Shown here one piece after another: positions 10,106-56,991 of a DNA stretch of 64,000 bases. The position numbers and the translations under genes were made by a program. Position 1 is the stretch's first letter. Each line of letters opens with the position of its first letter. Where the stretch lies: positions 80,940 to 144,939 of the forward strand of contig CAWEPB010000002.1 in the NCBI GenBank assembly GCA_963810815.1. Direction: 5' to 3'. The notes under the pieces are model-generated. The model ran no database searches. It was given only the letters and a program-made list of their open reading frames with translations, and was not told the origin of the DNA. The stretch is from an uncultured beta proteobacterium (lineage in GTDB: Bacteria; Pseudomonadota; Gammaproteobacteria; Burkholderiales; Casimicrobiaceae).

Positions 10106-10125
10106 GGCAATGGGGAGTGGCCCGG

Positions 10126-10617: not shown

Positions 10618-10675
10618 CGGTACGTGGGCACCGGGCGCCGGCGCGAGGGGAGGCGAATCGCGCCGGCGGTGACTG

Positions 10676-11323: not shown

Positions 11324-11336
11324 GGCGTCAGCTCCT

Positions 11337-12143: not shown

Positions 12144-12212
12144 GTCATACCTCCGGAGTGTGGTGCGCGACCCGCCGCGCGTCGTCGAAAAGGGGCCCGC
12201 TCTCCCGCGCCG

Positions 12213-12653
12213 CTAGGGACGCAGGTAGGCGTAGCCTTCCTTGGCCTGGAGCTTGGAGACCTCGGCGACTCCGGAGGGGACTATCTTGGCCTCGGCGATC
12301 ACCTTGCTCTTGTCGATGTTGCGCGACTGCAGCGTGAAATTGCAGACGCGGAACTCGATGCCCTTCGAGACCAGATCCTGCACCAGCGGCTCGTAGAGGT
12401 TGCCGTTCTTGTCGACGGCGCCGTCGAGCAGGAAGTTGATGCCGGCCGCGTGCGTCACCACGACGATCTTTGCCGTGGGATCGGCGGCAAGGTGGTTCTT
12501 GATGTTGCGCATCGCCGCGGTCGCCTGATCGTTGCCCTCGTTCAGGTGATAGACGACCTTGACCGGACCGGACGGATCGGCCGCGAGGGCCGGGACTGCG
12601 CACATCGCCACCGCGAACGCGGCCGCGGCCGCAGCGTTACGCCATATCGACAT
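12213..12653 (-). CDS. DsrE/DsrF-like family protein with Sec signal peptide
   Basis: ATG at 12653 follows GGAGGAGG. MSIWRNAAAAAAFAVAMCAVPALA is a signal peptide. The VKVVYHLNEG...KIVVVTHAAGINFL...FRVCNFTL pattern resembles DsrE-like sulfur-relay folds. Confidence 0.75.
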   Translation of the reverse strand: MSIWRNAAAAAAFAVAMCAVPALAADPSGPVKVVYHLNEGNDQATAAMRNIKNHLAADPTAKIVVVTHAAGINFLLDGAVDKNGNLYEPLVQDLVSKGIEFRVCNFTLQSRNIDKSKVIAEAKIVPSGVAEVSKLQAKEGYAYLRP

Positions 12654-12746
12654 CGGAACCTCCTCCTGGTCGGGGCGCACGGTGCGCCCTTGGTTGCGCC
12701 CCGCGAGATCGTCGCCTCGTCGGTGCGCGCGCGAAACGGTTTCGCC

Positions 12747-13058
12747 CTACGCGATCGTCGCTTCGTCGGTGCGCTTTTCGCCGCGGTTGTCGGTCCAGGT
12801 GACCTGGACCTTCTCGCCCTTGGCACCGCCCTTGAACTTGAACGACAGGAACGGGTTCTTCGCCACCGCCGGGCCCCACTGCGCGGACAGCACGGTCTTG
12901 CCGTTGTGGGTCGCGGTCACGTTCTGGATGAACCACGCCGGGATCGTCTTGCCCTGCGGGTCCTTTCGCTGGCCGGTCTCCATTTCGTGGCTCATCAGCA
13001 CCTTCACTTCGGTCGAATCGCCAACGACGTTCGCCCGGATTCGCATCGGATCTGCCAT
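12747..13058 (-). CDS. soxZ: SoxZ, sulfur carrier complex subunit
   Basis: MADPMRIRA...VKVLMSHEMETGQRKD...PAWFI is a typical SoxZ sequence. 103 aa. Follows soxY by 35 nt. Confidence 0.9.
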   Translation of the reverse strand: MADPMRIRANVVGDSTEVKVLMSHEMETGQRKDPQGKTIPAWFIQNVTATHNGKTVLSAQWGPAVAKNPFLSFKFKGGAKGEKVQVTWTDNRGEKRTDEATIA

Positions 13059-13093
13059 GTCTTGCCTCCTGGTGGTCGTGTTGGGGGTGCGCG

Positions 13094-13567
13094 TCAGCCG
13101 CCGCAGCCGCCCAGCGTGACCTTGATTTCCTTGGACGCCACGTAGTACTTGCCGTCGGCCTTGACCAGTGCATAGACGTTCGAGCTCTGGCCCATCTTCA
13201 GGCGGGTGGTGATCGCCGGGTCGGTGCCGGCGGGGATGTCGAACGACGCGACCAGCATGTTCGGATTCTTCTCGACCAGGATCGCGATCGACTCGGTCTT
13301 CGGGATCGCGCTCGACACGCCGACCGGCACGACGGCGCCGTTCTCGGCGATGTCGGGCGTCTGCACGAACGTGATGTCCTTGCTCTGCGTCGCACCGCTG
13401 CCGCCCAGCGCCTTGACCGTATCGTCGAGCGTCTTGGTGTCGAATGCGGCCTTGTTCCACGCCGCCTGCGCCGCCGCGTCGCGCGGCAGCCAGCCGGCCG
13501 CCGCGACCAGGGCGAACAGCGTGACCCCGCCGCTTTTCTTCAGAATGTCCCTGCGTTGCGTATCCAT
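13094..13567 (-). CDS. soxY: SoxY, sulfur-binding carrier protein
   Basis: Tat signal MDTQRRDILKKSGG. Diagnostic C-terminal swinging-arm motif VTLGGCGG directly before the stop. Confidence 0.95.
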   Translation of the reverse strand: MDTQRRDILKKSGGVTLFALVAAAGWLPRDAAAQAAWNKAAFDTKTLDDTVKALGGSGATQSKDITFVQTPDIAENGAVVPVGVSSAIPKTESIAILVEKNPNMLVASFDIPAGTDPAITTRLKMGQSSNVYALVKADGKYYVASKEIKVTLGGCGG

Positions 13568-13598
13568 GTCTTCCTCCGACTGCCGAAAATTAGGTGAC

Positions 13599-13628
13599 GT
13601 TATACCCGGTTCCGATTCCAGCGTGCAA
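13599..13628 (-). promoter_or_regulatory. Candidate sigma70 promoter for soxYZ
   Basis: On the minus strand, TTGCAC (13628-13623), an 18-nt spacer, then TATAAC (13604-13599). Lies in a locally AT-richer spacer between soxD and soxY. Confidence 0.3.
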
Positions 13629-13676
13629 CCGGCCGGCCCGACATCATGCCCTGCCGCAACTCTGCCGACCAAGCGG

Positions 13677-14714
13677 CTATTTTGCGCCCTCGAGGATCCA
13701 CTGCACCATCGCCCGCGCGTCCGCTTCCCTGACCTGGGCCTGCGGGGGCATCGGGATCTGGCCCCAGACGCCGGTGCCGCCCGCGCGCACCTTGGCGGCG
13801 AGTTTCGCCTCCGCCGAGGTGTCGCCCGTGTACTTGGCGGCGATCTCGCGGAACCCCGGGCCGACAACCCGGCTGGCCACCGCATGGCACGCCGTGCAGC
13901 CCGCCTGCTTGACCATCGCCGACGGGTCGGGGGTTGCCGCCGGCTTCGCCGGCGACGCCGCTCCCGGCGCCCCGGCCGCCGCCACGGTGGTCCCGGACCT
14001 GGTGCCGCGCGCCGCGCCGGTGCCTTCGATCGGACCGAGGTCGCGGGTCTGTTCGGCCAGGTTGCCATGCGAGTCGCGGGCGTAGTCGGGATATTCCGAC
14101 GACAGCCGGATTTCGGCGCCGCAGTTGGTCATGCAGAGGGTGTTCATCACGTCGGGCTTGCCGTCGCGCCGCATGAAACCGTGGTCGGTGGTGAAGCCGT
14201 CGCGATTGGGCAGCTTCAGCTTCGGCAGCGACTCGCGGTCGAGCGCGGCGTCGGCGGGAAGGATGTCCGACAGGTGCAGCACGTACGCCGTCAGCGCGTA
14301 CACCTCGTTGGGCGTCAGCGTCTTGGGGTTCGTGAACGGCATCGCCCGGTTGATGTAGTCCCAGAGCGTCGTCGCATGGGCGAGCTTGCTGCCGGTGGTG
14401 CGCATCGGCTGGTCGCTCTTGAGCGAACCCACGCCGCCGGCGATCGCCATGTAGTCGGTGCTCTCGCCGAAGGTGCCGTGGCAGCTCGCGCACTTCCGGT
14501 CGTAGATTTCCTGGCCTTCGGCAACGGTGCCGCGACCGGGCGGAAGACCCTTGCCGTCCGGGCGAACGTCGATGTCCCAGGCGGCGATCTGCTCGGGGGT
14601 CGGCGCCTGGCCGAAGCCGTACTTCGGTGCCGACCTGGATTCCGCCGCCAGGACCGGGAAGGCGATGGCAGCCGCAAGCATGCCGACGGCCGCACGGCGG
14701 CCGATCGCACGCAT
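13677..14714 (-). CDS. soxD: SoxD, diheme cytochrome c subunit of sulfane dehydrogenase, with C-terminal c551-like module
   Basis: ATG at 14714 gives a signal peptide MRAIGRRAAVGMLAAAIAFPVLAAE. Heme 1 is CASCH. After an Ala/Gly/Pro linker comes a second domain, GCTACHAV...GVWGQIPMPPQ, closely resembling Pseudomonas cytochrome c551. An alternative ATG at 14753 overlaps soxC. Confidence 0.85.
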   Translation of the reverse strand: MRAIGRRAAVGMLAAAIAFPVLAAESRSAPKYGFGQAPTPEQIAAWDIDVRPDGKGLPPGRGTVAEGQEIYDRKCASCHGTFGESTDYMAIAGGVGSLKSDQPMRTTGSKLAHATTLWDYINRAMPFTNPKTLTPNEVYALTAYVLHLSDILPADAALDRESLPKLKLPNRDGFTTDHGFMRRDGKPDVMNTLCMTNCGAEIRLSSEYPDYARDSHGNLAEQTRDLGPIEGTGAARGTRSGTTVAAAGAPGAASPAKPAATPDPSAMVKQAGCTACHAVASRVVGPGFREIAAKYTGDTSAEAKLAAKVRAGGTGVWGQIPMPPQAQVREADARAMVQWILEGAK

Positions 14715-14736
14715 CCGCGCCCCGGTTCGGACCGGC

Positions 14737-16059
14737 TCAAAGAACCTGGACATTGGACACCTCGCCGGTGGCATCGACGCGCCAGGTCTGGATCGCGTTG
14801 TTGTGGTAGATCGAACGCGTGCCGCGGACCGCGCGCAGCTGGCGCAGCGCCGGCTGCACGTAGCCGGTGTCGTCGACGGCGCGCGACTGCAGCAGCGCCG
14901 GCCCGCCATCCCAGTTCCAGTCGATGCGAAAGCGCGTGAGCGCCTTGGTGTGCACCGGCTCCTGCAGCTGCGCGGTGCGCCAGTTCCTGCCGCCGTCGGT
15001 CGACACGTCGACGCGGCGCACCTTGCCGCGCCCCGACCACGCGAACCCGGTGATCTGGTGGTAGCCCTTGTCGAGGATGACCTGGCCGCCCGACGGCGAC
15101 GTGATGACGCTCTTCGCTTCCTGGATCCACGTGAACTGCCGATGGACGCCTCCCGGGAGCAGGTCGATGTAGTGCAGAGCTTCCTCACGCGTGTACCACG
15201 GCTGGTCGCCGACCTCGATGCGGCGCAGCCACTTGACGCTGGACACGCCCTGCACCCCCGGCACCAGCAGCCGCAGCGGGTAGCCCTGCTCGGGCCGCAG
15301 CATCTCGCCGTTCTGGCCGTAGGCGACGATCACGTCGTCGAGCGCCATCTCGATCGGCACCGTGCGCGTGAGGGCGGCGCCGTCGGAGCCCTCGGCCAGC
15401 ACGAACCGCGCGGCCTTCCGGTCGACGCCGACCTCGTCCAGCAGCGTCGACAGCAGGACCCCGGTCCACTCGCTGCACGCCAGCATGCCGTGCGAGAACT
15501 GCACCGTCGGCACGGCGACGTTGCCCCACTCCATGCCGGTGTTGGCGCCGCATTCGATGAAGTGCACGCGCGACACCGACGGAAAGCGGATGATGTCGTC
15601 CACCGTGAACATCCGCGGGGCCTTGACCATGCCGTGCACCATCAGCCGGTGCTGGAACGGGTCGATGTCCGGAATCCCGGCGTGGTGCCGCTCGAAATGC
15701 AGACCCGAAGGCGTGATGATGCCGAACAGGTTCTGCAGCGGCGTGAACGAGACCGACGAATGCGGCGTGCGGGTGAGGCCGGGGCTTTCGCGCCGGCGCA
15801 CGCTCGCCTCGAACCGCGACGGCACCCCGTACGGCGAGGTCAGGATCGGCGCGCCGAGCGTCTTGCTCCAGTCCGGGACCAGCGCCGACTTGTCCTGTGC
15901 GGCGGCCCGGCCGGGGGCCAGCGCAGCCCCCGCGGCGACCATGCCGCCGGAGAGCGCGGCGGCGCGCCGCAGAAAACCGCGGCGCGCGCCATCCTTCGGC
16001 GCAGACGGCGCCTCGGGTGCCGGGCGTATCCGCCCCGGCACGAGTGTCTTCTCCGGCAT
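14737..16059 (-). CDS. soxC: SoxC, molybdopterin subunit of sulfane dehydrogenase (sulfite-oxidase family)
   Basis: Tat signal ARRGFLRRAAALSGG. The sulfite-oxidase fold includes a conserved Mo-ligand Cys context (HFIECGAN). 440 aa. Upstream of soxD. Confidence 0.9.
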   Translation of the reverse strand: MPEKTLVPGRIRPAPEAPSAPKDGARRGFLRRAAALSGGMVAAGAALAPGRAAAQDKSALVPDWSKTLGAPILTSPYGVPSRFEASVRRRESPGLTRTPHSSVSFTPLQNLFGIITPSGLHFERHHAGIPDIDPFQHRLMVHGMVKAPRMFTVDDIIRFPSVSRVHFIECGANTGMEWGNVAVPTVQFSHGMLACSEWTGVLLSTLLDEVGVDRKAARFVLAEGSDGAALTRTVPIEMALDDVIVAYGQNGEMLRPEQGYPLRLLVPGVQGVSSVKWLRRIEVGDQPWYTREEALHYIDLLPGGVHRQFTWIQEAKSVITSPSGGQVILDKGYHQITGFAWSGRGKVRRVDVSTDGGRNWRTAQLQEPVHTKALTRFRIDWNWDGGPALLQSRAVDDTGYVQPALRQLRAVRGTRSIYHNNAIQTWRVDATGEVSNVQVL

Positions 16060-19283: not shown

Positions 19284-19312
19284 TTGCACATTTTTGGGCT
19301 CGGCGCGATAAT
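19284..19312 (+). promoter_or_regulatory. Candidate sigma70 promoter for tkt
   Basis: TTGCAC (19284-19289), 17-nt spacer, GATAAT (19307-19312), in an AT-rich patch about 130 nt upstream of the tkt ATG. Confidence 0.4.
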
Positions 19313-19442
19313 TTCAAGCTCCGGCCCGCACAACAACAGCTTTTTGCGGTGCGGCACGGTCCGCGGATCAGGCAGCGGCAAGGTCTTCGATGACGATGCG
19401 CTGCCACCGTTCGCCCCCTCCCGCCGCCCCGACTGCGCCTCG

Positions 19443-21482
19443 ATGACCGCCAACCTCGCCACCGATTCCGATCTCGCCAACGCATTGCGGGCGCTCGCCA
19501 TGGATGCGGTCGAGGCGGCGAAGTCCGGCCACCCGGGCATGCCGATGGGCATGGCGGAAATCGCCGTCGCGTTGTGGCATCGACACCTTTCGCACAATCC
19601 GGCGAACCCGCAGTGGCCCGATCGCGATCGTTTCGTGCTGTCCAACGGCCACGGTTCGATGCTGCTCTACGGGCTGCTGCACCTGTCCGGCTACGACCTG
19701 CCGCTCGACGAGCTCAAGCGCTTCCGGCAACTCCACTCGAAAACGCCGGGGCATCCGGAAGCCGGCGCCACGCCCGGCGTGGAAACCACGACCGGTCCGC
19801 TGGGCCAGGGCGTCGGAAACGCCGTCGGCATGGCGCTCGCCGAGCGGCTGCTCGCGGCGCAGTTCAATCGACCGGGTCACCGCATCGTCGACCACCGCAC
19901 CTGGGCGTTCCTCGGCGACGGTTGCCTGATGGAGGGCGTTTCGCACGAGGCCTGCGCGCTGGCCGGAACGCTCGGGCTGTCGAAGCTCGTCGCGTTCTGG
20001 GACGACAACGGGATCTCGATCGACGGCGAGGTCGAGGGCTGGTTCACCGACGATACGCCGAAGCGCTTCGAGGCCTACGGCTGGAACGTGATCCGCGGCG
20101 TCGACGGCCACGATGTCGGCGCGGTCGACGCGGCGATCCGGGCGGCGCTCGCGGAATCGGCGCGGCCCACGCTGATCTGCTGCCGCACCACCATCGGCAA
20201 GGGCGCGCCGACCAAGGCGGGAACGGCCGATGCGCACGGCTCGGCGCTGGGCGCGCAGGAAATCGCCGCGGCGCGCGCGGCGCTGGGCTGGCCGCACCCG
20301 CCGTTCGAGATCCCCGGGGCGATCGCGAGCGGCTGGAATGCCCGGGCGGACGGCGCGCGACGCGAGACCGAGTGGACCGCCCGGCTGGCCGCGTACCGCG
20401 CGGCGTTTCCCGAACTCGCGGCCGAGTTCGGGCGACGGATGGCGGGCGAGCTGCCGGCCGACTTCGCCGCGACCGTCGCCACGTTCGTCGCGTCGCAGGC
20501 GGCCAAGGCGGAGACCGTCTCGACGCGCAAGGCGTCGCAACAGGCGATCGAGGCCTTCGCGCGCGCGCTGCCGGAAATGCTGGGCGGGTCGGCCGACCTC
20601 ACCGGCTCGGTGTTCACCAACTGGTCGGGCAGCGTTCCGGTGACGCGCGAGCAGCCGGGCAACTACATCCACTACGGCGTGCGCGAGTTCGGCATGAGCG
20701 CCATCATGAACGGCGTCGCGCTGCACGGCGGCTTCATTCCCTATGCCGGAACCTTCCTCACGTTCTCCGACTACGCGCGCAACGCGGTGCGGATGGCCGC
20801 GCTGATGAAGCTGCGCGTGATCCACGTCTACACGCACGACTCGATCGGGCTCGGCGAGGACGGCCCCACGCACCAGTCGATCGAACACGCGGCGAGCCTG
20901 CGGCTGATCCCGAACCTCGACGTCTGGCGCCCGTGCGACACCGTCGAGTCGGCGGTGGCGTGGGCGGCCGCGATCGGGCGGCGTCCCGGCGCGGACCCGG
21001 GGCCGACAGCGCTGCTGTTCACGCGCCAGAACGTCCCCTTCGTCCCGCGCAGCGACCCGCAGATCGCCGCCATCGGGCGCGGCGGCTACGTGCTGGCCGA
21101 CTGGGATGCGGCGGCGCCGAAGCGGGCGATCGTCGTCGCCACGGGTTCGGAGGTGGCGCTGGCGCTGGCGGCGCGCGAACTGCTCGCCGCCGAAGGCATC
21201 GGCGTCCGCGTCGTGTCGATGCCCTGCACGCGCCGCTTCGACGCGCAGGATGCCGCCTGGCGCGCGAGCGTGCTGCCGCCCGGGACCGCGCGCATCGCCG
21301 TCGAGGCGGGGTCCACCGACGGCTGGCGCAAGTACACCGGCGCCGCCGACGATCCGAAAGGGGCGGTCCTCGGCATCGACACGTTCGGCGAATCGGCGCC
21401 GGCCGGCGCGCTGTTCAGGCACTTCGGACTGACTGCCGACAACCTCGCCGCCACCGTCCGGCGCTGCGTGGCGGCGGCCTGA
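19443..21482 (+). CDS. tkt: Transketolase
   Basis: ATG at 19443 gives ...[30 protein letters not shown]. ThDP motif GDGCLMEG. 679 aa. Confidence 0.95.
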
Positions 21483-21489
21483 CCCGGTC

Positions 21490-22047
21490 ATGGCGATGAG
21501 TCCGGCCACCGTCATCCGCCCCGCCGTCGCCGGCGACGCCCGGGCGATCGCGCAGGTGCGCGTCGACGCGTGGCGCGCGACCTATCGCGGGATGATCCCC
21601 GACGCCTACCTCGACGGCATGAGCGTCGACGCGAGCGAGACCGGCTGGCTGCGCATCCTGAGCGCACCGAACCGGGTCGCCGCGGTGTTCGTCGCCGAGG
21701 ACGAATCCGGCGTCGTGGGCTTCGCGTCGGGCCATCGCCTGGCGGAGCCGAAGCACGGCCTCGACGCCGAACTGTCCGCGGTGTATCTGGTACCGACGGC
21801 GCAGCGCGCCGGCACCGGCACGCGCCTGGTCGCCGCGGTGGCGCAGTCGCTCGCGCGGCTGGGCGCCACCGGGCTGATCGCCTGGGTGATCGCCGCGAAC
21901 CGGCGCGCGCGCGCCTTTTACGAAGCGCTCGGCGGCGAACTGCTGCTCGAGCAGCCGTTCCAGTGGGACGGCATGGACCTCGTCGAGGCAGGCTACGGCT
22001 GGCGCGATCTTCCCGCGCTGGCCGTGGCCGGCCCCGTGCTTCAATGA
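21490..22047 (+). CDS. GNAT family N-acetyltransferase
   Basis: IRPAVAGDARAIAQV N-terminus and acetyl-CoA motif QRAGTGTRLV. 185 aa. Confidence 0.8.
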   Translation: MAMSPATVIRPAVAGDARAIAQVRVDAWRATYRGMIPDAYLDGMSVDASETGWLRILSAPNRVAAVFVAEDESGVVGFASGHRLAEPKHGLDAELSAVYLVPTAQRAGTGTRLVAAVAQSLARLGATGLIAWVIAANRRARAFYEALGGELLLEQPFQWDGMDLVEAGYGWRDLPALAVAGPVLQ

Positions 22048-22077
22048 ACCGTCATCGACCCGAAAAGGAGTGACAGC

Positions 22078-23091
22078 ATGACCATCAAAGTCGCCATCAA
22101 CGGCTACGGCCGCATCGGTCGCAACATCCTGCGCGCCCACTACGAGGGCGGCAAGAAGCACGACCTCGAGATCGTCGCGATCAACGACCTCGGCAGCCCC
22201 GAGACCAACGCGCACCTGACGCGCTACGACACCGCGCACGGGAAATTCCCGGGCAAGGTCGAGGTCGACGGCGACGCGATGGTCGTCAACGGCGACCGGA
22301 TCAAGGTCTTCGCGCAGCGGGACCCGGCGCAGCTGCCCTGGGGCACGCTCGGCGTCGACGTGGTGCTCGAGTGCACCGGCTTCTTCACGACCAAGGAGAA
22401 GGCGTCGGCGCACCTGAAGGGCGGCGCGAAGAAGGTGATCATCTCGGCGCCCGGCGGCAAGGACGTCGACGCCACCGTCGTCTACGGCGTCAACCACGGC
22501 ACGCTCAAGGCCGCGCACACCGTCATCTCGAACGCGTCGTGCACGACCAACTGCCTCGCGCCGCTGGTGAAGCCGCTGCACGACAAGATCGGCCTCGTCA
22601 ACGGGCTGATGACGACCATCCACGCCTACACCAACGACCAGGTGCTGACCGACGTCTACCACGAGGACCTGCGGCGGGCGCGCTCGGCGACGATGAGCAT
22701 GATCCCGACCAAGACCGGCGCTGCGGCGGCGGTCGGCCTGGTGCTGCCCGAGCTCAACGGCAAGCTCGACGGCTACGCGATCCGCGTGCCGACGATCAAC
22801 GTGTCGGTGGTCGACCTGACGTTCATCGCCGCGCGCGACACCACCGTCGACGAAGTCAACGCCATCATGAAGGAAGCCGCGGACAGCGGCCCGCTGGCGG
22901 AGGTGCTCAACTACAACAAGGCACCGCTGGTTTCGGTCGATTTCAACCACGACCCGGCGTCGTCGACGTTCGACGCGACGCTGACCAAGGTCTCCGGCCG
23001 GCTGGTCAAGGTCTCTTCGTGGTACGACAACGAGTGGGGCTTCTCCAACCGGATGCTCGACACCACCGTGGCGCTGATGAACGCCAAGTGA
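22078..23091 (+). CDS. gap: Glyceraldehyde-3-phosphate dehydrogenase
   Basis: [13 protein letters not shown] motif and active site [21 protein letters not shown]. Confidence 0.95.
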
Positions 23092-23174
23092 CGCCGCGGG
23101 ACGCGTGAACGCCCCGTCGAACGCAGCGCCCGACCTCCGCCCCGGCGACGCATCAAGTCGCCGGGGCGGTCGTC

Positions 23175-23660
23175 GTGCGCCCGATCGCGATGGCCGACGT
23201 CGAGGGGTTCCGCGCCTGCGTCGACGCGGTGATGAAGGAGCGGCGCTGGCTCGCCTACCTCGAGGCATTCCCGCTCTCCCGCACCGCGGCCTTCGTCGCC
23301 GGCAACCTCGAATCGGGGAACCCGCAGTTCGTCGCCGACGACGGCGGCCGGATCGTCGGCTGGTGCGACATCTGCCGCGAAACGATTCCGACCTACGCGC
23401 ACTGCGGTATGCTGGGGATGGGCGTGCTCGCCCCGTTCCGCAGCCGCGGTCTGGGCACGCGGCTGATCGCGGCCGCGCTCGGCGCGGCCCGCGAGCGCGG
23501 GATCGAGCGCGTGGAGCTGTCGGTCTACGCGCACAACACGGCGGCGCAGGCGCTCTACCGCAAGGCCGGCTTCGTTCATGAAGGCACGCGCGTCCGCGGC
23601 CGCAAGCTCGACGGCGACTACGCCGACATTCACATGATGGGCCTCGTGTTCGCGCGCTGA
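23175..23660 (+). CDS. GNAT family N-acetyltransferase
   Basis: GTG start. Acetyl-CoA motif FRSRGLGTRLI and GNAT C-terminal ALYRKAGF. 161 aa. Confidence 0.8.
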   Translation: MRPIAMADVEGFRACVDAVMKERRWLAYLEAFPLSRTAAFVAGNLESGNPQFVADDGGRIVGWCDICRETIPTYAHCGMLGMGVLAPFRSRGLGTRLIAAALGAARERGIERVELSVYAHNTAAQALYRKAGFVHEGTRVRGRKLDGDYADIHMMGLVFAR

Positions 23661-23684
23661 GCCCCCCTCCGACTGGACACCACC

Positions 23685-24869
23685 ATGGACTTCTTCCGCC
23701 TTTCCGACCTCGACGTGCGCGGCAAGCGCGTCTTCATCCGCGCGGACCTCAACGTGCCGCAGGACGCCAGCGGGGCGATCACCGACGACACGCGGATCCG
23801 CGCGTCGGTGCCCGGCATCCGCGATGCCCTGGATCGCGGCGCGGCAGTGATGGTCACCTCGCATCTCGGCCGGCCCGTCGAGGGACAGTGGAGCGCAGCC
23901 GACTCCCTCGCCCCGGTCGCGCGGCGGCTCGGCGAACTCCTCGGGCGCGACGTGCCGCTGGTGCGCGACTGGGTCGACGGCGGCGCCTGGCACCAGGCGC
24001 TGAAGGCCGGCGACGTCGTGCTGCTGGAGAACTGCCGCTTCAACAAGGGCGAGAAGAAGAACGACGAGGCGCTGGCGCGCAGGATGGCGGCGCTCACCGA
24101 CGTCTACGTCAACGACGCGTTCGGGACCGCGCACCGCGCGGAGGCGACGACCGAAGGCATCGCCCGCTACGCGCCCATCGCGTGCGCCGGCCCGCTGGTG
24201 GCCGCCGAACTCGACGCGCTGACGCAGGCGCTGGCGCAGCCGAAGCGGCCGCTGATCGCCATCGTCGCCGGGTCCAAGGTCTCGACCAAGCTGACCGTGC
24301 TGCGCGCGCTGGCGGCGAAAGTCGACTGCCTGATCGTCGGCGGCGGCATCGCCAACACGTTCATCCTCGCCGCCGGCGGCCACATCGGCAAATCGCTCGC
24401 CGAGCCGGACCTGGTCGGCGAGGCGAAGGCGATCCTCGACACCTTCCCGGGCAAGGTGCCGGTGCCGGTGGACGCGGTCTGCGCCAAGGAATTCTCGGCG
24501 ACCGCCAGGCCCGAACTCAAGGCGGTCGAGAACGTCGAGCCGGACGACCTGATCCTCGACCTCGGCCCGCAGAGCGTGGCGTACATCGCCACCGTTCTCG
24601 CGAAGGCCGGGACGATCGTGTGGAACGGCCCGATCGGCGTGTTCGAGTTCGACGCCTTCGCCGGCGGCACCCGGGCGATGGCCGAGGCGATCGTCAGGTC
24701 CGGCGCCTACACCATCGCCGGCGGCGGCGACACGGTCGCCGCGATCAACAAGTTCGGCATCGCCGACCGGATCTCGTACATCTCCACCGCGGGCGGCGCG
24801 TTCCTCGAGTTCCTCGAGGGAAAGACGCTGCCCGCGATCGCAGCGCTGGAAGCGCGCGCTGCCGGCTGA
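23685..24869 (+). CDS. pgk: Phosphoglycerate kinase
   Basis: RADLNVP, SHLGRP and GGGDT motifs. 394 aa. Confidence 0.95.
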
Positions 24870-34451: not shown

Positions 34452-34955
34452 TCAGCCGCCGAGCTGGAGGTCGTCGGCGATGGCCTTGATGCCGGCGCGA
34501 GCGCAGCCGTCGTCGGTCTCGCCGGACGGCGCCCCGGAGATGCCGACGGCGCCGATGATGGTGCCGCCCGCCTCGATCGGGACGCCGCCGCCGACCATGA
34601 CGACCCCCTGGATGTGCCGGATGCCCGACGACAGCTCGCCGGACTGCGTGGCCTTGGCGAGACCGACCGTGTCGGCGCGGAACGAGACCGCGGTCCACGC
34701 TTTCGCCCTGGCCGTGTCCGGCGTGTGCGCGCCGGCGAACCGGTCGCGCAGCATGACCTGGGCGACGCCGCCGCGATCGACGACCGCCACGGCGACCTGG
34801 TAGCCGCCCTTGCGGCACTGCTCGAGCGCGGCCTGCGCCACCTTCAACGCGGCCTCGGGGGTGAGCTGGCGAACCGTGAACGTTGATTGCGCCGCGGCCG
34901 GTGAGGCTGCCGCCAGCGCGATCACCAGCGCCGCCAACGGAAAGGACATTCTCAT
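34452..34955 (-). CDS. GlcG/HbpS-like (DUF336) heme-binding protein with signal peptide
   Basis: GGAGGA RBS. Signal peptide MRMSFPLAALVIALAAASPAAA. Core ...AVAVVDRGG...GGGVPI...GAVGISGAPSGETDDGCA is typical of GlcG/DUF336. Confidence 0.8.
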   Translation of the reverse strand: MRMSFPLAALVIALAAASPAAAQSTFTVRQLTPEAALKVAQAALEQCRKGGYQVAVAVVDRGGVAQVMLRDRFAGAHTPDTARAKAWTAVSFRADTVGLAKATQSGELSSGIRHIQGVVMVGGGVPIEAGGTIIGAVGISGAPSGETDDGCARAGIKAIADDLQLGG

Positions 34956-35080: not shown

Positions 35081-35114
35081 AAAAAAGAGCCGCCCGGGTC
35101 GCCCCGGACGGCTC
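35081..35114 (-). terminator. Rho-independent terminator after the NapC/NirT-like cytochrome gene
   Basis: The minus strand reads GAGCCGTCCGGGGCGACCCGGGCGGCTC followed by TTTTTT, 16 nt after the stop. Confidence 0.7.
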
Positions 35115-35129: not shown

Positions 35130-36575
35130 CTACTTCTTCGCGTCCTTTTTCGCCGCTTCGGCCGTCTTCGCGGGGGCCGGTTTGGCCGGCTCGGCCGCCT
35201 TCGGCGCATCGGCGGCCGGCGCCGCCGCCTTCGCCGGCTCGACGTTGAGGTTGATCTCCGGCCACGTGCGCCCGTGGCAGGCGGGATTCGAGCAGAAGCT
35301 GCCGCCGTCGTTGCCGAACTTGACCGGGCCGTGGCACATCTTGCAGCTGTCGTCGAGGCTCAGGCGGTGCTCGCGCATCCAGTTCGCCGCGCCGTGGCTT
35401 TCCGGCGGCGTCAGGCCGGGCATCGTCGTCGAAGCCACCGTCTTCAGCGTGCCGTCGACGGTGACCTGCGGGATGTCGTGGCACAGCGTGCACTGCAGCC
35501 GGATCGCCTCGCCCTTCTCGTTGAAGTGCTTGCCGTCGTGGCAGCGGAAGCAGCCGGCCGAGTCCTTGTGGCCGGCGTGGTTCGGGAACGACTTCCAGGT
35601 CAGGTCCTTGGCCTCGAACTCCGACAGCTTCAGGATCTCGAGCATCGTTGCGCTGAACTGCTCCTCGGCCTTCTTCGCGTCGGGCTTGAGCTCGCCCTTC
35701 GGCCGCGCCTCGGCGATGATCCGCTCGAACTGCGGCACCTGCTGTTCCAGCGGCCCGTGCAGCGCCGACGCCTTGTCGATGATCGCCAGGGCGCGCGCCT
35801 TGATCGACGGCAGGTCGCGGCTGATGCGGCCCTCCTGCATCGCATCGTCGACGCGGTCGGCCGGGTTCCGGAACGGGTGGCCCGACGCGTTGTGGCAGTC
35901 GGCGCACTCCATCTTCCGCTTCGGCAGCTGGTCGAGCTCGGCGCGGGCGAGCTTGCTCGACGCGTCGACGTAAGTCGTGGACTTGCCGTCCTTGCCGGTG
36001 ATGCGGACCCAGGGAATGACCCGCTTCTGCTCGTCGACGGTGGCGAACTCGACGTTCTGGTCGACGTGCCAGTGGATGCCGCGCGTCGCGCCTTCGCGCG
36101 CCTCGCCGCCGCCGGTGTGGACGATCAGCCGGGTGCGCGACTCGGTGTTCTTGGCGTCGGTGTCGTAATGGACCTTGGTGCGGACTTTGTCGTCGTGGAC
36201 GTTGGTCGGCCAGTGGCAGTTCTCGCAGGAGTCGCGCGCCGGACGCATCGTCGTCGCGTGCAGCGGCCGCTCGTACCCGGTCAGCATCGCCCAGGGCTCG
36301 CGCCAGTGGCCGACCTTGGCCACCATCAGCTGCAGCGTCGGCAGCCGGCCCATGTGGCACTCGACGCAGTTGACCCGGGCGTGCGCCGAGACCGCGTGGG
36401 CCCGGGGCTCCTCCGGGTGCACCTGGTGGCACGAGTTCGTGCAGAACGCGTTGCTGTTCGTGTACTCCCAGAAGACGATGCCTCCGGCGCCGAGGACGGC
36501 GAGCGCGATCCCGACGACGACCAGCGTCGTCACCGTCCCCATCATCAGCGTCCGCCGACCCAGCTTGATGTTCAT
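35130..36575 (-). CDS. Membrane-anchored multiheme cytochrome c, NapC/NirT-like N-terminus (6 CXXCH + CX3CH + CX4CH)
   Basis: GAGAGGAAGG RBS. N-terminal TM TVTTLVVVGIALAVLGAGGIVFW. Heme sites are CTNSCH (CX3CH), CVECH, CENCH, CADCH, CFRCH, CTLCH, CKMCH and CSNPACH (CX4CH). Ala/Pro/Lys-rich C-terminal tail. 481 aa. Confidence 0.8.
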   Translation of the reverse strand: MNIKLGRRTLMMGTVTTLVVVGIALAVLGAGGIVFWEYTNSNAFCTNSCHQVHPEEPRAHAVSAHARVNCVECHMGRLPTLQLMVAKVGHWREPWAMLTGYERPLHATTMRPARDSCENCHWPTNVHDDKVRTKVHYDTDAKNTESRTRLIVHTGGGEAREGATRGIHWHVDQNVEFATVDEQKRVIPWVRITGKDGKSTTYVDASSKLARAELDQLPKRKMECADCHNASGHPFRNPADRVDDAMQEGRISRDLPSIKARALAIIDKASALHGPLEQQVPQFERIIAEARPKGELKPDAKKAEEQFSATMLEILKLSEFEAKDLTWKSFPNHAGHKDSAGCFRCHDGKHFNEKGEAIRLQCTLCHDIPQVTVDGTLKTVASTTMPGLTPPESHGAANWMREHRLSLDDSCKMCHGPVKFGNDGGSFCSNPACHGRTWPEINLNVEPAKAAAPAADAPKAAEPAKPAPAKTAEAAKKDAKK

Positions 36576-36654
36576 CGTCGCCTTCCTCTCGTCGTTTCGG
36601 TGCCTGCGCCGCCGCCGGACCGCGCCGTTCTCGCGCCGGAGGTGGATACGCGAA

Positions 36655-36676
36655 GGCGGACCGCATGCGGTCCGCC
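36655..36676. repeat. Perfect 22-bp palindrome GGCGGACCGCATGCGGTCCGCC in the cyt b / NapC-like spacer
   Basis: Read directly. Located in the 154-nt gap between two co-oriented genes. No strong U-tract follows on the minus strand (TTCGCGTATCC). Confidence 0.6.
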
Positions 36677-36729
36677 CCAGGGACCCGCGACGGCCGCCGG
36701 CGCGCCGGCGAACGCCACGCGTCAGAGTA

Positions 36730-37608
36730 CTAGAAGATGCTGTACACGATCAACACGACCGTGATCACGCCGAGGACCAGCGCCGTGCCGCCGACGACCC
36801 AGCCGAACCATTTCGCTTCCGCGGTCGGCGCCGTCGTCTCCTTCGCCGCCAGCTTGCCGTCGCGGATCAGCCGCTGGAGTTCGATCTGCCGCTCCTCCTT
36901 CAGCTCGTGCTCGGAAATGCGGCCGGTGAAGATCACCGTGTCCATCGGGAACTTCTCCGGCCGCAGGTGGCCGTTGAAGAAGTGGAAGGTGAAGATGAAG
37001 CCGACGGCGAGCAGCGCCTCCTCGCCGTGGACCAGCGACGCGACGTTGAACATCCAGCCCGGCAGCAGCCTGGAGAAGAACACGGGGAACCACAGCAGGA
37101 GCCCGGAGCCACCGATGATGAACATCCCCCAGAACACCGCCCAGTAGTCGAACTTCTCCCAGTAGGTCCAGCGGTCGAACTGCGGGCGCGGGCCGCGGCC
37201 GACGAACCACTTGAAGTTGCGCCAGATGTCGACGATGTCCTGCGGCTGCGGCACCATCGAATCAGGACCCCACAGCATCGCCATCACCCGGCCGCCGCGG
37301 ATCGCCTTGGAAAAGACGAGCACGACGTGGCTGACGAACACCACGATCATCACGAACGCGCAGATGCGATGGATGAGGCCGGCGCCCTCGAAGCCGCCCA
37401 GCAGCCGCGCCAGCGTCTGCGCCCACCCCTGCTCGGCGTAGATCAGCGGCAGGCCGGACAGCGCGCAGCCGACGAACGTCAGCATCAGGAGCGCATGCAT
37501 GACCCGCTCGATCGGCGTGAACCGCCGATAGTAGCGGTGCGCGGCGCCGGCAGCGCCAGCCTGACCGCCGACCACCGCGGCGGCGACGTTACCGGAAGCG
37601 ATCGACAT
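36730..37608 (-). CDS. Integral-membrane cytochrome b-like subunit (HydC/FdnI / Ni-hydrogenase-b-type-like)
   Basis: ATG at 37608 shares its A with the TGA stop of the upstream cytochrome gene (TGATG). At least 4-5 hydrophobic helices carry conserved His (HALLMLTF, HRICAFVM, HGEEALLAVGFIFTFHFFNGH) plus a C-terminal extra TM. 292 aa. Confidence 0.8.
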   Translation of the reverse strand: MSIASGNVAAAVVGGQAGAAGAAHRYYRRFTPIERVMHALLMLTFVGCALSGLPLIYAEQGWAQTLARLLGGFEGAGLIHRICAFVMIVVFVSHVVLVFSKAIRGGRVMAMLWGPDSMVPQPQDIVDIWRNFKWFVGRGPRPQFDRWTYWEKFDYWAVFWGMFIIGGSGLLLWFPVFFSRLLPGWMFNVASLVHGEEALLAVGFIFTFHFFNGHLRPEKFPMDTVIFTGRISEHELKEERQIELQRLIRDGKLAAKETTAPTAEAKWFGWVVGGTALVLGVITVVLIVYSIF

Positions 37609-38843
37609 CAGTGCCTCTCTTGGCTGTTGCCGCGACCGCGGGCGAGCCGCTCCCGCAGCGAACGGTAGAACCAGAATACGGTGTGCACCCCGAAGAACGA
37701 GAACACGCCGAGCAGCAGGACTTCCATGAACCGCGCCGCCCAGAAGTAGAGGGGGCTGCGCGCCTTGTCGTGCTTGTTCGCGTGCGGATCGAAGCTCGCG
37801 AAATTGGCGCTCGCACCCGGGTGGCATTTCTGGCAGGTCTGCAGCCGGTTCTGCGGTGACACCATCGACGCCGGATTCGACGCCGGCAGCACGTCGTGGG
37901 CGCCGTGGCAGGACGCGCAGGTCGCCATCCGGGCGTACCCCAATGCCGTGACCTGGCCGTGGAACGTGTCGCGGTAGGTCTTGACGTAGTCCGCGTGGCA
38001 GGTCCCGCACTCCTTGATCACGTCGAGCTGGAACTGCGCCGCACCGTGCTGCTGGATGCCGTGCGCGCTGTGGCAGTCGGAGCATCCGGGCGCCGCCAGC
38101 ACGCCGTCCTGCCGCAGCTTGCCGTGCATGCCGTTGTTCCAGGCGTCGAATTCGGGCTTGTGGCAGCTGCCGCAGGTCTTCGGGATGTTCGCGCGGGCGA
38201 CCTTGCTGGCGGGATCGGACTTCGGCCGCATGTCGTGCGTGCCGTGGCAGTCGGTGCACTCCGGCGCCGAGGCCCGGGCCGCGCCCTTCAGCGCCTTGCC
38301 GTGGATGCTGTCGTCGAACTTGCCGCCGATGTTGCCGCCGGGCAGCCCGGCCTTGGCACCCTCGGCGCCGTGACAGCGCAGGCAGGTGGCCTGCAGATTG
38401 GCGTGGTTGGTCCGGGACTCCGGATCCTTCGACGGCCTGATGTCGTGCGTGCCATGGCAGTCGGTGCAGCTTGCCGCCGCGTCGTTGCCGCCCTTGCGCG
38501 ACACCCCGTGCACCGTCGTCGCGTACTCCTTGACGGCCTTGTCGTGGCAGTTCGCGCACTGCACGGGCTTCAGCTTCTCGGCATGCGGCACCTTGCTGGC
38601 CGAGACGTCGGCGTGGCAATCGGTGCACTTCAGGGTCGCGGCGCCGTGGACGGACGCCGCGAACTTCGCGCCGTCGACGGCGATCGACTTGCCGGCAGTG
38701 CTTTTCGCGTCCTTGTCGCCGTGACACATCAGGCAGGTGTCGTTGGCGTTCGGCGCCGGCGCGGCCGGCGCGGCGATCGCTGTGGCGGCAACGCTGGCGA
38801 ACAGCATCGCGAACAGCGACCGGCAAAGCTTGGGGGCAGTCAT
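37608..38843 (-). CDS. Periplasmic undecaheme cytochrome c with C-terminal TM anchor
   Basis: ATG at 38843. Signal peptide MTAPKLCRSLFAMLFASVAATAIAAPA. 11 CXXCH sites: CLMCH, CTDCH, CANCH, CTDCH, CLRCH, CTDCH, CGSCH, CSDCH, CGTCH, CASCH, CQKCH. Repeated CxxCHGxHD paired-motif pattern. C-terminal TM FMEVLLLGVFSFFGVHTVFWFY. Confidence 0.8.
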   Translation of the reverse strand: MTAPKLCRSLFAMLFASVAATAIAAPAAPAPNANDTCLMCHGDKDAKSTAGKSIAVDGAKFAASVHGAATLKCTDCHADVSASKVPHAEKLKPVQCANCHDKAVKEYATTVHGVSRKGGNDAAASCTDCHGTHDIRPSKDPESRTNHANLQATCLRCHGAEGAKAGLPGGNIGGKFDDSIHGKALKGAARASAPECTDCHGTHDMRPKSDPASKVARANIPKTCGSCHKPEFDAWNNGMHGKLRQDGVLAAPGCSDCHSAHGIQQHGAAQFQLDVIKECGTCHADYVKTYRDTFHGQVTALGYARMATCASCHGAHDVLPASNPASMVSPQNRLQTCQKCHPGASANFASFDPHANKHDKARSPLYFWAARFMEVLLLGVFSFFGVHTVFWFYRSLRERLARGRGNSQERH

Positions 38844-38950
38844 GGTTGTCCCTGTGACGCTCGGTTGCGCCGCCACCCCGGGATGCAAGCACGGCGCTCC
38901 CGTCCCAGGTCGGCGCGGATGGAGGATCGCACGGCCCCCTTTCGGGGGCG

Positions 38951-38964
38951 TTGACGTGGATCAA
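38951..38964. promoter_or_regulatory. FNR-type box TTGAC-GTGG-ATCAA
   Basis: 9/10 match to TTGAT-N4-ATCAA. Centred about 114 nt upstream of the undecaheme cytochrome start codon and 38 nt after the stop of the upstream YdiJ-like gene. It abuts a GCCCCC-TTTC-GGGGGC hairpin (38934-38949). Confidence 0.4.
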
Positions 38965-54352: not shown

Positions 54353-56194
54353 TCAGGCGCGGCAGCGCGCGACGACGAACGCCGTCAGCGCATCGACGCA
54401 GGCGGCGACGTCCTGCGTCTCGGTGTCGACGACGAGGTCCGGCGCGTCGGGCGGTTCGTAGGGGCTGTCGATGCCGGTGAAGTCGCGCAGTTCGCCGGCG
54501 CGCGCCTTGCGGTACAGCCCCTTCGGATCGCGCGCCTCGCAGACCGCGAGCCCCGATTTCACGTGCACCTCGAAAAAGCGGTGCGTGCCGGCGGCGGCGC
54601 GGGCGCGCGCGCGGTCGTCGCGATACGGCGAGATGAACGCCGTGACGCACACCGCGCCGGCGTCGGCGAACAGCGCGGCCACCTCCCCGATGCGGCGGAT
54701 GTTCTCCTGCCGGTCGTCCGGCGCGAAGCCCAGGTCCGCGTTGAGCCCGCGGCGCACATTGTCGCCGTCGAGCGTGTAGACCTGCCAGCCGCGGTCGAAC
54801 AGGCGCCGCTCGACCGCCATCGCCAGCGTCGACTTGCCCGCGCCCGACAGGCCGGTGAGCCAGACCACGGCACCGGCGTGGCCGGTGCGCGCCGCCCGCT
54901 CGACGCCGGTGACCGAATGGCCCACCGGCGTCAGGTGATCGCCGGCGGCCCGCGCATGCCGCAGGTCCGGATAGCCGCTGGCGTCGGCGACGCCGCCGCC
55001 GACGATCGCGTGGTCTTCGATCAGCACGAAACGCGCGCCGTTCGGGTGCGCGGCGTAGTCGTCGAGCGCGATCGTCGCGTCGCAGCGCAGCGTGACGCGG
55101 CCGACGCTGCCTTCGGGCACGGCGACCCCGGCCCGCGCGGCGAAGGCGTCGTCGTCGAACACCTGGTCGACGGCGACGACGTGCGCGCCCACCTCGCGGG
55201 TGCCGACGCGCAGCCGCAGCCGGCGCCCCGCGGCGAGGTCCCCGGCGCCGAGCCAGAACAGCTCCGCGTCGAACACCGCGGTGAGCTTCGGCGGCGAGCC
55301 CGGGTCGCACAGGAGGTCGCCGCGCTCGACCAGCAGCGGCAGGTCGAGCACGACGCCGGCGTTGTCGCCGGTGTCCGCGGCGGCCGGGGGCTGCGGCCAC
55401 CCGGTCAGCGCCTCGACGCGCGCCGCGAGTCCCGACGGCAGGACGAGCACCCGATCGCCGGCGCGCACCGTGCCGCGCGCGACGCGGCCGGCGACGACGC
55501 GGCGCTCGCCGTCGCGGTAGACGTCCTGCACCGGCATCCGCAGCGGACCCGGCGCCGGCGCCACCGCGTCGGGCAGCGCCTCGAGCGCCGCGATCAGCGT
55601 CGGGCCGGCCCACCAACCGGCGCGGCAGGGCCGCACGAGATTCTCGCCGTCGCGCGCGGCCACCGGCACGATCGCATGCGCGACCAGGCCCAGGCGCGCC
55701 AGCGCGTCCGCGAGTTCGTCGCGGACCGCGCCGAAGCGCGCCGCGTCCCAGTCGACGAGGTCCATCTTGTTGACGGCGACGACCAGGTCGCGGACGCCGA
55801 GCAGCCGCAGCAGCGACAGGTGTCGGCGCGTCTGCGCCTCGATCCCGGCGTGCGCGTCGACGACCAGCAGCCCGGCCTCGGTGTCGGCGGCGCCGGTGAC
55901 GAGGTTGCGGATGAGCTGGCGGTGTCCCGGCGCGTCGATGATGACGAACTCGCGCACCGGCGTGGCCAGCCGGACGCGCGTGGTGTCCAGCGTGATGGCC
56001 TGGTCGCGCTCGACCTGGAAGGCGTCGAGCACGAACGACCATTCCAGCGGCACGCCGCGGCGGGCGCTCGCCGCCTCGAGCGCGGCGACCTTGCCGTCGG
56101 GCAGGAGATCGAGCTCGTGCAGCAGGCGACCGAGCAGCGTCGACTTCCCGTGGTCGACGTGGCCGGCGAGGCAGATCGACAGCGGGGCGGCCAT
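54353..56194 (-). CDS. cysNC: Bifunctional sulfate adenylyltransferase subunit 1 / adenylylsulfate kinase (CysN-CysC fusion)
   Basis: ATG at 56194 overlaps the cysD stop (TGATG). GTPase motifs [15 protein letters not shown] and NKMD. The C-terminal APS kinase has the P-loop GLSGAGKST. Confidence 0.9.
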
Positions 56195-56991
56195 CACATG
56201 TAGCCCGCGGCACGCAGCCGCTCGAAGGCGTCCTCGCGCTCGTGGTCCATCGCGCGGCCCGCCCGCTCCTCCGAGCGCGTGCTCTCCAGCTCGCGGATGA
56301 TCTCGGCGACCGTCGACGCCTGCGACGGCACCGGATGCGTGATGTCCTTCTCGCCCAGCGAACGGAAGCGGCGGCCGTCGCGGGCGAAGTAGAGCTCGCA
56401 GACCGGGATGCTCTCGCGCTGCACGTAGCGCCAGATGTCGAGTTCGGTCCAGGCGAGCAGCGGGTGGACGCGCACGTGGCCGCCGGGCGGCGGAACGCTC
56501 TGGAACTGTCCCCACAGCTCGGTGGGCTGCGTGCGGAAATGCCAGGTGCCGTCGGCGTCGCGCGGGCTCATCCACCGTTCCTTGCCGCGCACCGGCTGCT
56601 CGTCGCGCCGGATGCCGAGCACGACGCCGGCGAACTTCTCCCGTCCGATCAGCCGCTTCAGGCCCAGCGTCTTGCGCGCGGCGGCACGCGCCGCGGGCGG
56701 CAGCGTGGTGTCGGTCTCCTCGACGCCGGGACACTCGGCGTTGATGTAGTCGAGTCCCCACTCGCGCACGTAGCGGTCGCGGAACGCGTAGACCTCGTCG
56801 AATTCGTTGCCGGTGTCGAGCAGGATCACCGGAAACGGCACGCGGCCCCCGAACGCCTTGCGCGCGAGCCAGATCATCGTGTTGCTGTCCTTGCCGAGCG
56901 ACCACAGCATCGCCAGCGGCTTCAGCCGCGCGTACGCCTCGCGCAGGACGTAGATCGATTGCTGCTCCAGGGCGTGCAGGACGTCGGACAT
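56194..56991 (-). CDS. cysD: Sulfate adenylyltransferase subunit 2
   Basis: PAPS-reductase-fold motif MLWSLGKDS. 265 aa. Translationally coupled to cysNC. Confidence 0.95.

Follow-up and report, generated by a model that had tools for sequence, protein, structure and literature searches.

A 64,000-nucleotide (nt) stretch of contig CAWEPB010000002.1, from an uncultured betaproteobacterium of the family Casimicrobiaceae and referred to here as the window, carries a run of three genes on its minus strand – genes (i), (ii) and (iii) – that encode membrane-attached cytochromes with nineteen c-type heme sites between them. An earlier note, made by reading the sequence, had described this run as a multiheme electron-transfer module of unassigned function. 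Its features, from upstream to downstream, are these:

38951..38964, minus strand: FNR/CRP-family-type palindrome TTGATCCACGTCAA (TTGAT-N4-GTCAA), a putative activator site
37608..38843, minus strand: gene (i), 411 aa, 11 CXXCH motifs, an N-terminal hydrophobic signal-like segment and a C-terminal transmembrane (TM) helix
36730..37608, minus strand: gene (ii), 292 aa, PF01292, a predicted FdnI-type diheme cytochrome b with 5 TM helices
36576..36729, minus strand: intergenic spacer between genes (ii) and (iii), 154 nt, no conserved element
35130..36575, minus strand: gene (iii), 481 aa, one N-terminal TM helix and 8 heme sites, predicted ImcH-family cytochrome
35087..35114, minus strand: strong intrinsic terminator, in which a 12-bp stem containing 10 G-C pairs precedes a T-run
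34452..34955, minus strand: HbpS-like gene directly after the operon, encoding a secreted heme-binding protein (PF03928, E 1.4e-32), a possible accessory

Genes (i) and (ii) overlap in the motif TGATG: the ATG of gene (ii) (37608-37606) and the TGA of gene (i) (37610-37608) have base 37608 in common, and the terminator closes the three-gene operon. On this overlap the earlier note had read the DNA correctly, as it had for the layout of gene (i) and for gene (iii), described there as a TM-anchored NapC/NirT-like cytochrome with up to eight hemes: six CXXCH motifs are accompanied by one CX3CH and one CX4CH, and the family PF03264 matches. Its remarks that the locus has no catalytic partner, and no outer-membrane partner nearby, hold for the entire 64 kb, in which we found no catalytic partner, no further multiheme gene and no MtrB-like porin. 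No specific NCBIfam model matched any of the three genes.

The membrane subunit encoded by gene (ii) can be placed by its heme ligands. Gene (i) matched generic multiheme Pfam families, and gene (ii) matched PF01292 (E 4e-12); a profile of the b family matched Escherichia coli FdnI (1kqf_C) over its full length (E 3.5e-6), and H38, H80, H194 and H209 of gene (ii) align with the FdnI heme ligands H18, H57, H155 and H169. An AlphaFold2 model of gene (ii) (pLDDT 81) had 1kqf_C as its sole significant Foldseek match (TM-score 0.76, target-normalised). The FdnI/FdnH pair is thus the closest solved structure for the b subunit: all four ligands are kept, and in both systems the partner protein contributes one C-terminal TM helix. 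The partner in the window is, however, a multiheme cytochrome rather than an Fe-S/Mo enzyme, and the window pair has a fifth TM helix in gene (ii) and further conserved histidines: H94, which is invariant, H214, which is invariant or nearly so, and H387 in the anchor helix of gene (i), which lies in an FFGxHT motif and is invariant across lineages and in natural fusions of the two proteins. Published descriptions of CbcL and CbcBA likewise have a histidine supplied by the first or partner helix. A fold search with the model of gene (i), in which the N-terminal 100 residues are poorly modelled, returned only weak HAO-like matches (TM-score about 0.3).

Fused relatives show where the two proteins meet. 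Genes (i) and (ii) were compared with the CbcL/MtoC/MtrH family of Zhong and Shi 2018, which is defined by 3-23 CX2CH motifs, six TM helices and a HydC/FdnI-like b domain in proteins of 416-1034 aa; it has many betaproteobacterial members, some of them adjoining mtrAB/mtoAB, and includes Geobacter sulfurreducens GSU0274, Dechloromonas Daro_1404 and Rhodoferax Rfer_4073 (PMC6295460). An exhaustive search with the b subunit against 1.84 billion cluster representatives found 2357 related clusters, and most of the best 150 representatives of these are fusions in the order multiheme c, TM helix, b domain, with a length of 450-1100 aa and 5-22 hemes before the b domain. One fused protein (P0135; 615 aa, 9 hemes) is collinear with the pair: gene (i), anchor helix included, aligns with its residues 25-323 (E 2e-39), gene (ii) is 51% identical to its residues 343-613, and its heme spacing resembles that tabulated for GSU0274. 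Across such fused, family-type proteins the b domain is 40-51% identical to that of the window. The pair has six TM helices in total – one in gene (i) and five in gene (ii) – at spacings of 42, 74, 34 and 82 residues that match the rows for Daro_1404, Rfer_4073 and Galf_2006, and the last heme spacings of gene (i) (30, 25, 30, 28) equal those of the same rows, which represent the MtoC/MtrH clade.

Gene (i) thus appears to correspond to the c domain plus first TM helix of the fused CbcL/MtoC/MtrH proteins, and gene (ii) to their TM helices 2-6; judged from sequence, the two genes are a split form of this normally fused family, with its multiheme c domain, its six helices and its HydC/FdnI-like diheme b. 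The analogy with a split Cbc-type oxidoreductase drawn in the earlier note is in this way made precise, through collinearity with P0135 and through the motif and TM spacings. The pair departs from the family in three respects: its six helices are carried on two coupled genes, divided after the first TM helix; it has 11 hemes as against 9 in CbcL and MtoC; and it is co-operonic with an ImcH-type gene, with no conduit nearby in the window.

The N-terminal five-heme module of gene (i) (residues 35-164, window about 38350-38740) also matches PDB entry 28pb_A (phmmer 3.6e-10, profile 1.2e-18), a 278-aa "Cytochrome c" with 7 CXXCH visible. The chain was suspected to be CbcA of Geobacter on the strength of a review that gives "2BPB", possibly the same entry, as the structure of CbcA; its identity was not established, since a database search with its sequence retrieved only a fragment from Nitrospirota, at 59% identity, and the match was not used.

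Gene (iii) has a CX3CH motif at residue 45, CXXCH motifs at 70, 117, 224, 342, 362 and 411, a CX4CH motif at 428 and thereafter an Ala/Pro/Lys-rich low-complexity tail. The similarity to NapC/NirT (PF03264, E 1.6e-10) and to NrfH (PDB 2j7a_C, E 2.8e-8) is confined to residues 15-143. NrfH, NapC and CymA differ from it in having four hemes, a CXXCH(xM) heme 1 and about 160-200 aa, against eight sites, a CX3CH and 481 aa. The CX3CH (C45-TNS-C49-H50) lies about 7-10 residues past the TM helix and is kept in 15 of 15 aligned homologues from Burkholderiales and Acidobacteriota loci; an atypical CX3CH beside the membrane region, together with six CX2CH, is the hallmark of ImcH (PMC6295460). ImcH (GSU3259) is a NapC/NirT-like seven-heme quinol oxidase required for high-potential acceptors, and its motifs at 132, 156, 205, 311, 428, 448 and 486 (PMC6295460) have spacings of 24, 49, 106, 117, 20 and 38, compared with 25, 47, 107, 118, 20 and 49 in gene (iii). 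Both proteins have the CX3CH directly after a helix and NapC/NirT likeness at the N terminus only; gene (iii) differs from ImcH in its single TM helix (three in ImcH), its extra CX4CH heme and its low-complexity tail.

The counterpart of gene (iii) in an acidobacterial locus allows a closer comparison. At the same position in the related locus L033 (Acidobacteria bacterium RIFCSPLOWO2_12_FULL_66_21) a gene starting from the ATG at 8985 encodes 455 aa with motifs at 130, 155, 204, 313, 428 and 448; near the N terminus it has three hydrophobic stretches, at the places where the table puts the TM segments of OFW24447.1. By organism, length, motif and TM positions this protein matches OFW24447.1, an ImcH homologue of Table S3 of the 2018 survey. 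Over 378 aa gene (iii) shares 34% identity with the L033 protein (E 5e-60), and every heme motif that the two have in common lines up. We take gene (iii) to be a member of the ImcH family of NapC/NirT-like cytochromes, a reading consistent with the ImcH/CymA likeness seen in the earlier note and now carried by the CX3CH, the heme spacing and the L033 counterpart; it belongs to a Burkholderiales clade in which the first two helices have been lost and a CX4CH heme has been added at the C terminus. ImcH homologues with one TM helix exist as published exceptions, and the 2018 survey tables contain no ImcH homologue labelled Betaproteobacteria or Burkholderiales (PMC6295460).

If the three genes form a module, they should be inherited together. 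Relatives of the b subunit number thousands in public data, the closest being 74-94% identical and derived from soil and groundwater metagenomes; the few closest relatives that bear organism names are Burkholderiales, Betaproteobacteria or Casimicrobiaceae. The representative clusters and cluster-member names from the b-subunit searches comprised only metagenomic and Acidobacteriota relatives. Gene order was compared in 81 related loci (80 species-representative genome loci and one metagenome locus). A gene (i) homologue lies directly upstream of the gene (ii) homologue in 80 of them, the exception being cut by a contig end: the pairing of multiheme c and cytochrome b genes is far beyond chance. 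At the junction there is a 1- or 4-nt overlap in 43 loci and an in-frame fusion in nine; four of the fusions come from MFD-labelled assemblies and could be indel artefacts, on our assumption that those assemblies were made from long reads. Fused and split forms coexist among close relatives. Because the overlaps are conserved and natural fusions occur, translational coupling of genes (i) and (ii) into a probably stoichiometric complex, proposed in the earlier note, gains support. The number of hemes varies with lineage: Burkholderiales-type and Acidobacteriota loci have 11, Rokubacteria 13 and Nitrospirota 9.

Among loci with enough downstream sequence, a gene (iii) homologue follows the pair in 20 of 20 Burkholderiales-type and 33 of 35 Acidobacteriota loci, so that the co-conservation of all three genes, on which the earlier note had made its proposal depend, is found in two phyla; it follows the pair in no Rokubacteria, Nitrospirota or Thioalkalivibrio locus surveyed. 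In Rokubacteria and in one Elusimicrobia locus a different, non-orthologous PF03264 membrane cytochrome occupies the position of gene (iii). Co-operonic conservation in two phyla, together with this repeated recruitment of NapC/NirT-type proteins in two further phyla, hints at functional coupling. Other flanking genes are unconserved, apart from close synteny with L004 and L006 and an HbpS-like gene in four loci, and the trio is therefore a self-contained module. In Geobacter, by comparison, the locus numbers of imcH (GSU3259) and cbcL (GSU0274) are far apart and the two genes do not form one operon, whereas in the window their homologues are co-operonic.

The neighbours that bear on function are outer-membrane conduit genes. 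In a scan of the fetched flanks (at most 8 kb per side) of all 81 loci, Mtr conduit genes – an MtrA/DmsE decaheme, an MtrB/PioB porin or an OmcA/MtrC decaheme – stand directly beside the trio in 22: 17 Acidobacteriota, three Burkholderiales-type (L001, L003 and L010), one Elusimicrobia (L080) and one Thioalkalivibrio (L048), the evidence in L080 and L048 being a single weak match each. NCBIfam models bear out examples of these genes (TIGR03507 with E 2.5e-147 in L031; TIGR03508 above cut-off in L030 and L010), and matches to TIGR03509 (E 1e-51 to 6e-54) are highly significant while under the curated cut-off. The usual layouts, on one strand, are mtrC-mtrA-porin-[trio] and [trio]-mtrA-mtrB.

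Several loci have further genes of interest. Four Burkholderiales-type loci (L012, L013, L015 and L016) each have an HbpS-like homologue upstream of the trio, in divergent orientation (about 5850-6350, reverse strand); the HbpS-like protein could be an accessory heme or redox-sensing component, the link being a recurring neighbourhood only. In five Nitrospirota loci (L059, L063, L066, L078 and L079) the cytochrome b gene is followed by a UbiE/COQ5-type methyltransferase gene, a small open reading frame (ORF) and a B12-binding radical-SAM gene, which hints at a link to quinone modification. The Elusimicrobia locus contains a second, fused 11-heme-cytochrome b paralogue straight after the first pair (L080:8833-10701) and, after that, a 13-heme NapC/NirT-type membrane cytochrome (L080:10934-12673). 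On L082, a 3.4-Mb metagenome contig with Acidobacteriota relatives, a fused nine-heme CbcL-like gene sits within a cytochrome cluster, with three multiheme cytochrome genes and a monoheme c gene upstream of it (L082:2341-5864).

A regulatory signal precedes the operon. The palindrome TTGATCCACGTCAA begins 121 nt ahead of the gene (i) start codon and is the only site in the 64 kb with at most one mismatch to TTGAT-N4-ATCAA; of the 20 Burkholderiales-type loci, 18 have TTGAY-N4-RTCAA upstream of the gene (i) orthologue, the background rate being 0.12 per 400 nt. At the same tolerance of one mismatch no Acidobacteriota locus has such a box upstream of its gene (i) homologue. Promoters of anaerobic respiration and denitrification have sites of the TTGAT-N4-GTCAA type, at which FNR/ANR/Dnr regulators act, and TTGATCCACGTCAA points to a putative low-oxygen or NO-responsive activator site, binding and the identity of the regulator being presumed from the motif. 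Control of the operon by sigma-54 and a BccR-type activator was considered and rejected, there being no such motif in the window, and a simple scan for a sigma-70 promoter found nothing. Two inverted repeats lie in the same region: GCCCCC-GAAA-GGGGGC at 38920-38950 (minus strand), between the palindrome and the start of gene (i), and GTTGA-CGCGCC-TCAAC, which overlaps the stop of the upstream FAD/Fe-S oxidase gene.

We consider it probable, though by no means settled, that the operon is induced at low oxygen and links the quinone pool to periplasmic or extracellular electron transfer by way of two inner-membrane devices. The first device would be the split CbcL/MtoC/MtrH-type bc-cytochrome. 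Its b hemes would be bound by H80/H194 on the side facing the periplasm and by H38/H209 on the side facing the cytoplasm; the analogy with FdnI, like an argument made for CbcL, would put a quinone site close to the cytoplasm, and the 11-heme subunit would be held to gene (ii) by its C-terminal helix in the way that FdnH is held to FdnI. With the quinone site near the cytoplasmic face, electrons would have to cross the membrane: quinol oxidation by this route would be assisted by the membrane potential, and quinone reduction would generate potential. The second device would be gene (iii), as an ImcH-type relative of NrfH and CymA. If it behaves like NrfH and ImcH, its CX3CH heme would trade electrons with quinol on the periplasmic side and the seven further hemes would relay them, an electroneutral reaction in which no charge crosses the membrane. 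The energetic logic of quinone sites on the N and P sides follows bioRxiv 10.1101/2022.08.31.506072 and 10.1101/2023.05.03.539133. Both devices would be co-transcribed, probably under an FNR-family activator at low oxygen, and would give electrons to, or take them from, periplasmic carriers and an Mtr/Mto-type conduit encoded elsewhere, if the organism has one. Through co-expression the quinone pool and the periplasmic multiheme carriers would then be connected by two routes that differ in energy yield and potential range, which Geobacter achieves with unlinked imcH and cbcL genes. The anatomy of the genes, their families, their conservation, the conduit genes beside relatives and the conserved palindrome are what the sequences show. 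Complex formation, the positions of the quinone sites, regulation, the direction of electron flow and the terminal substrate are what we infer here; a role in such electron transfer is likely because the same genes adjoin MtrAB(C)-type conduits in 22 of the 81 loci.

A number of points weigh against this proposal. Neither a conduit nor any other multiheme gene is present in the window, and 59 of the 81 related loci have no conduit within about 8 kb. Gene (iii) has one TM helix, not the three of ImcH. In the heme-1 pocket (K173, Q179 and Y188 in GSU3259) K87 and Y101 fit under the inferred register H137 = H50, while under the same register the counterpart of Gln179, the proposed distal heme-1 ligand of ImcH, is Glu93 in the Burkholderiales clade and Gln in Acidobacteriota. 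The host looks like a Sox-positive lithotroph, probably ubiquinone-based, unlike the menaquinone-based metal reducers that served for the study of these families. The relatives are metagenome assemblies, all 80 loci of the genome survey being labelled metagenome-assembled genomes. The family assignments draw on published motif tables (PMC6295460), one counterpart that matches a published entry and fused metagenomic intermediates; GSU0274 (CbcL), Daro_1404 (MtoC) and GSU3259 (ImcH) were compared through their tabulated motifs without direct alignment.

The same parts could work in the opposite direction, taking electrons from Fe(II), a cathode or reduced sulfur carriers and reducing quinone, in which case the FdnI-type arm would be the potential-generating half of a redox loop, as proposed for MtoC in iron oxidisers. 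This is possible, but we judge it rather unlikely. L003 and L010 have MtrA and MtrB homologues, and L001 has MtrB at the locus end, with MtrC not detected in the fetched flanks; iron oxidisers usually have MtrAB and no MtrC. The heme spacing of gene (i) is that of the clade of MtoC, the putative quinone reductase of Fe(II)-oxidising Betaproteobacteria (PMC6295460, PMC8805035), and the window holds Sox, transketolase, glyceraldehyde-3-phosphate dehydrogenase (GAPDH) and phosphoglycerate kinase (PGK) genes. The ImcH homologues of the 2018 survey, however, come only from Fe(III) reducers, and many Acidobacteriota relatives have the full MtrC-MtrA-porin set typical of reducers. No feature that separates oxidase from reductase members was found in that survey (PMC6295460). 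We keep a role in electron uptake under consideration because of the Sox context and the MtoC-like features.

Nor need the module have any extracellular role: it might be a low-oxygen quinol:cytochrome c bypass to soluble periplasmic reductases, for example those of denitrification, or serve to balance the pool of periplasmic cytochromes. The absence of conduits from the window and from the 59 loci agrees with such a role, as do the box, which is of the type found at FNR/ANR/Dnr denitrification promoters, and the Thioalkalivibrio and Nitrospirota loci in which the pair occurs without third gene or conduit. Nineteen hemes are, however, far above what the reduction of a soluble cytochrome needs, no nir, nor or nos gene is recurrent beside the trio, and the only recurrent neighbours are genes of Mtr-type conduits. 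We regard the bypass as doubtful.

A more far-reaching reading has the three proteins form one supercomplex, in which a periplasmic-face ImcH-type site and a cytoplasmic-face FdnI-type site are wired by a 19-heme chain. As the acceptor potential changes, such an assembly could move from an electroneutral route to a potential-assisted one or back, so that one operon would do the job of the separate ImcH and CbcL of Geobacter, and it might run a Rieske-free Q-loop or Q-cycle-like reaction; we think this quite improbable.

Least probable of all, to the point of being very hard to credit, is that genes (i) and (ii) are orthologous to Geobacter CbcBA (Cbc5), a quinol oxidase working near the thermodynamic limit, and not to CbcL/MtoC: the two systems have the same split and gene order, the gene for a PF01292 b subunit following that for a c subunit with a histidine-bearing C-terminal helix, and JGI records label the b subunit 'thiosulfate reductase-like', but CbcA has 7 hemes and CbcB 4 TM helices and 3 ligand histidines (against 11 hemes, 5 TM helices and the four FdnI ligands in the window), which suggests that CbcB belongs to a different PF01292 subfamily, the sigma-54-dependent BccR regulator that controls cbcBA has no counterpart in the window, the CbcB tree seeded with GSU0593 contains no Rokubacteria or Thioalkalivibrio and one Acidobacteria and one Holophaga member while the window family is abundant in Acidobacteriota, and the six-TM total and histidine distribution fit the published description of CbcL. 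Set apart in this way by published descriptions, CbcBA is an unlikely orthologue of the pair.

The surroundings of the operon offer no redox partners. Upstream lies the cytoplasmic FAD/Fe-S oxidase gene, and downstream the HbpS-like gene and groES/groEL; these flanking genes are not redox partners of the trio. A search of PLSDB with tblastn gave no match that would indicate plasmid carriage. Further away, at about 8369-16059, is a Sox-type cluster with SoxB-like, SoxA/TsdA-type, Mo-cofactor SoxC-like and DsrE-like genes, in keeping with the Sox-positive context described in the earlier note. The transketolase, GAPDH and PGK genes (19284-24869) were judged from the N-terminal sequences of their ORFs only; together with the Sox genes they would agree with the lithoautotrophic context proposed before. 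The window also has a bifunctional CysN/CysC-like gene (54353-56905).

The spacer between genes (ii) and (iii), which had been called structured, is no more so than expected by chance: its predicted minimum free energy (-78.8 kcal/mol) is close to that of shuffled sequences (-80.4 +/- 4.2; z = 0.38), its length in relatives ranges from 0 to 550 nt, its sequence is unconserved and an Rfam search of the 154 nt gave no match. A structured element or riboswitch was rejected on these grounds. The spacer does contain one perfect hairpin (about 36654-36677, minus strand), with a 10-bp G+C stem and a 4-nt loop, GGCGGACCGC-ATGC-GCGGTCCGCC, and no T-run; L002 has a comparably strong hairpin, which most relatives lack. 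A role in processing or stability is possible, or the hairpin may be a repeat.

The description of the locus as an uncharacterised system of unassigned function was an overstatement: the module is not an orphan, because it is built from two named families, and Geobacter members of both are genetically characterised quinol oxidases of extracellular electron transfer. The earlier note had also said that its claim would fail if the genes belonged to a single named complex of known substrate; both families do have names, yet full-text literature searches, which were not exhaustive, found no description of an operon that combines them or of a joint complex. Four things appear to be new: the split form of the bc-cytochrome, the Burkholderiales clade of ImcH with a single helix and eight hemes, the operonic linkage of both families, conserved in two phyla, and the FNR-type box.

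In Geobacter the need for ImcH or CbcL depends on the redox potential of the acceptor, a dependence that is central to extracellular respiration and mechanistically unsolved. Here homologues of both proteins are joined in one operon that is apparently oxygen-regulated, in an arrangement conserved in abundant uncultured Burkholderiales and Acidobacteriota of soil and groundwater and often placed beside Mtr conduits. Surveys for fused CbcL or for three-helix ImcH alone would be expected to miss the split, single-helix form: if so, the inner-membrane entry points to extracellular electron transfer in soil may be underestimated. The operon would, moreover, be a compact two-route system in which to test how the face of the membrane that bears the quinone site sets energy yield and potential range.

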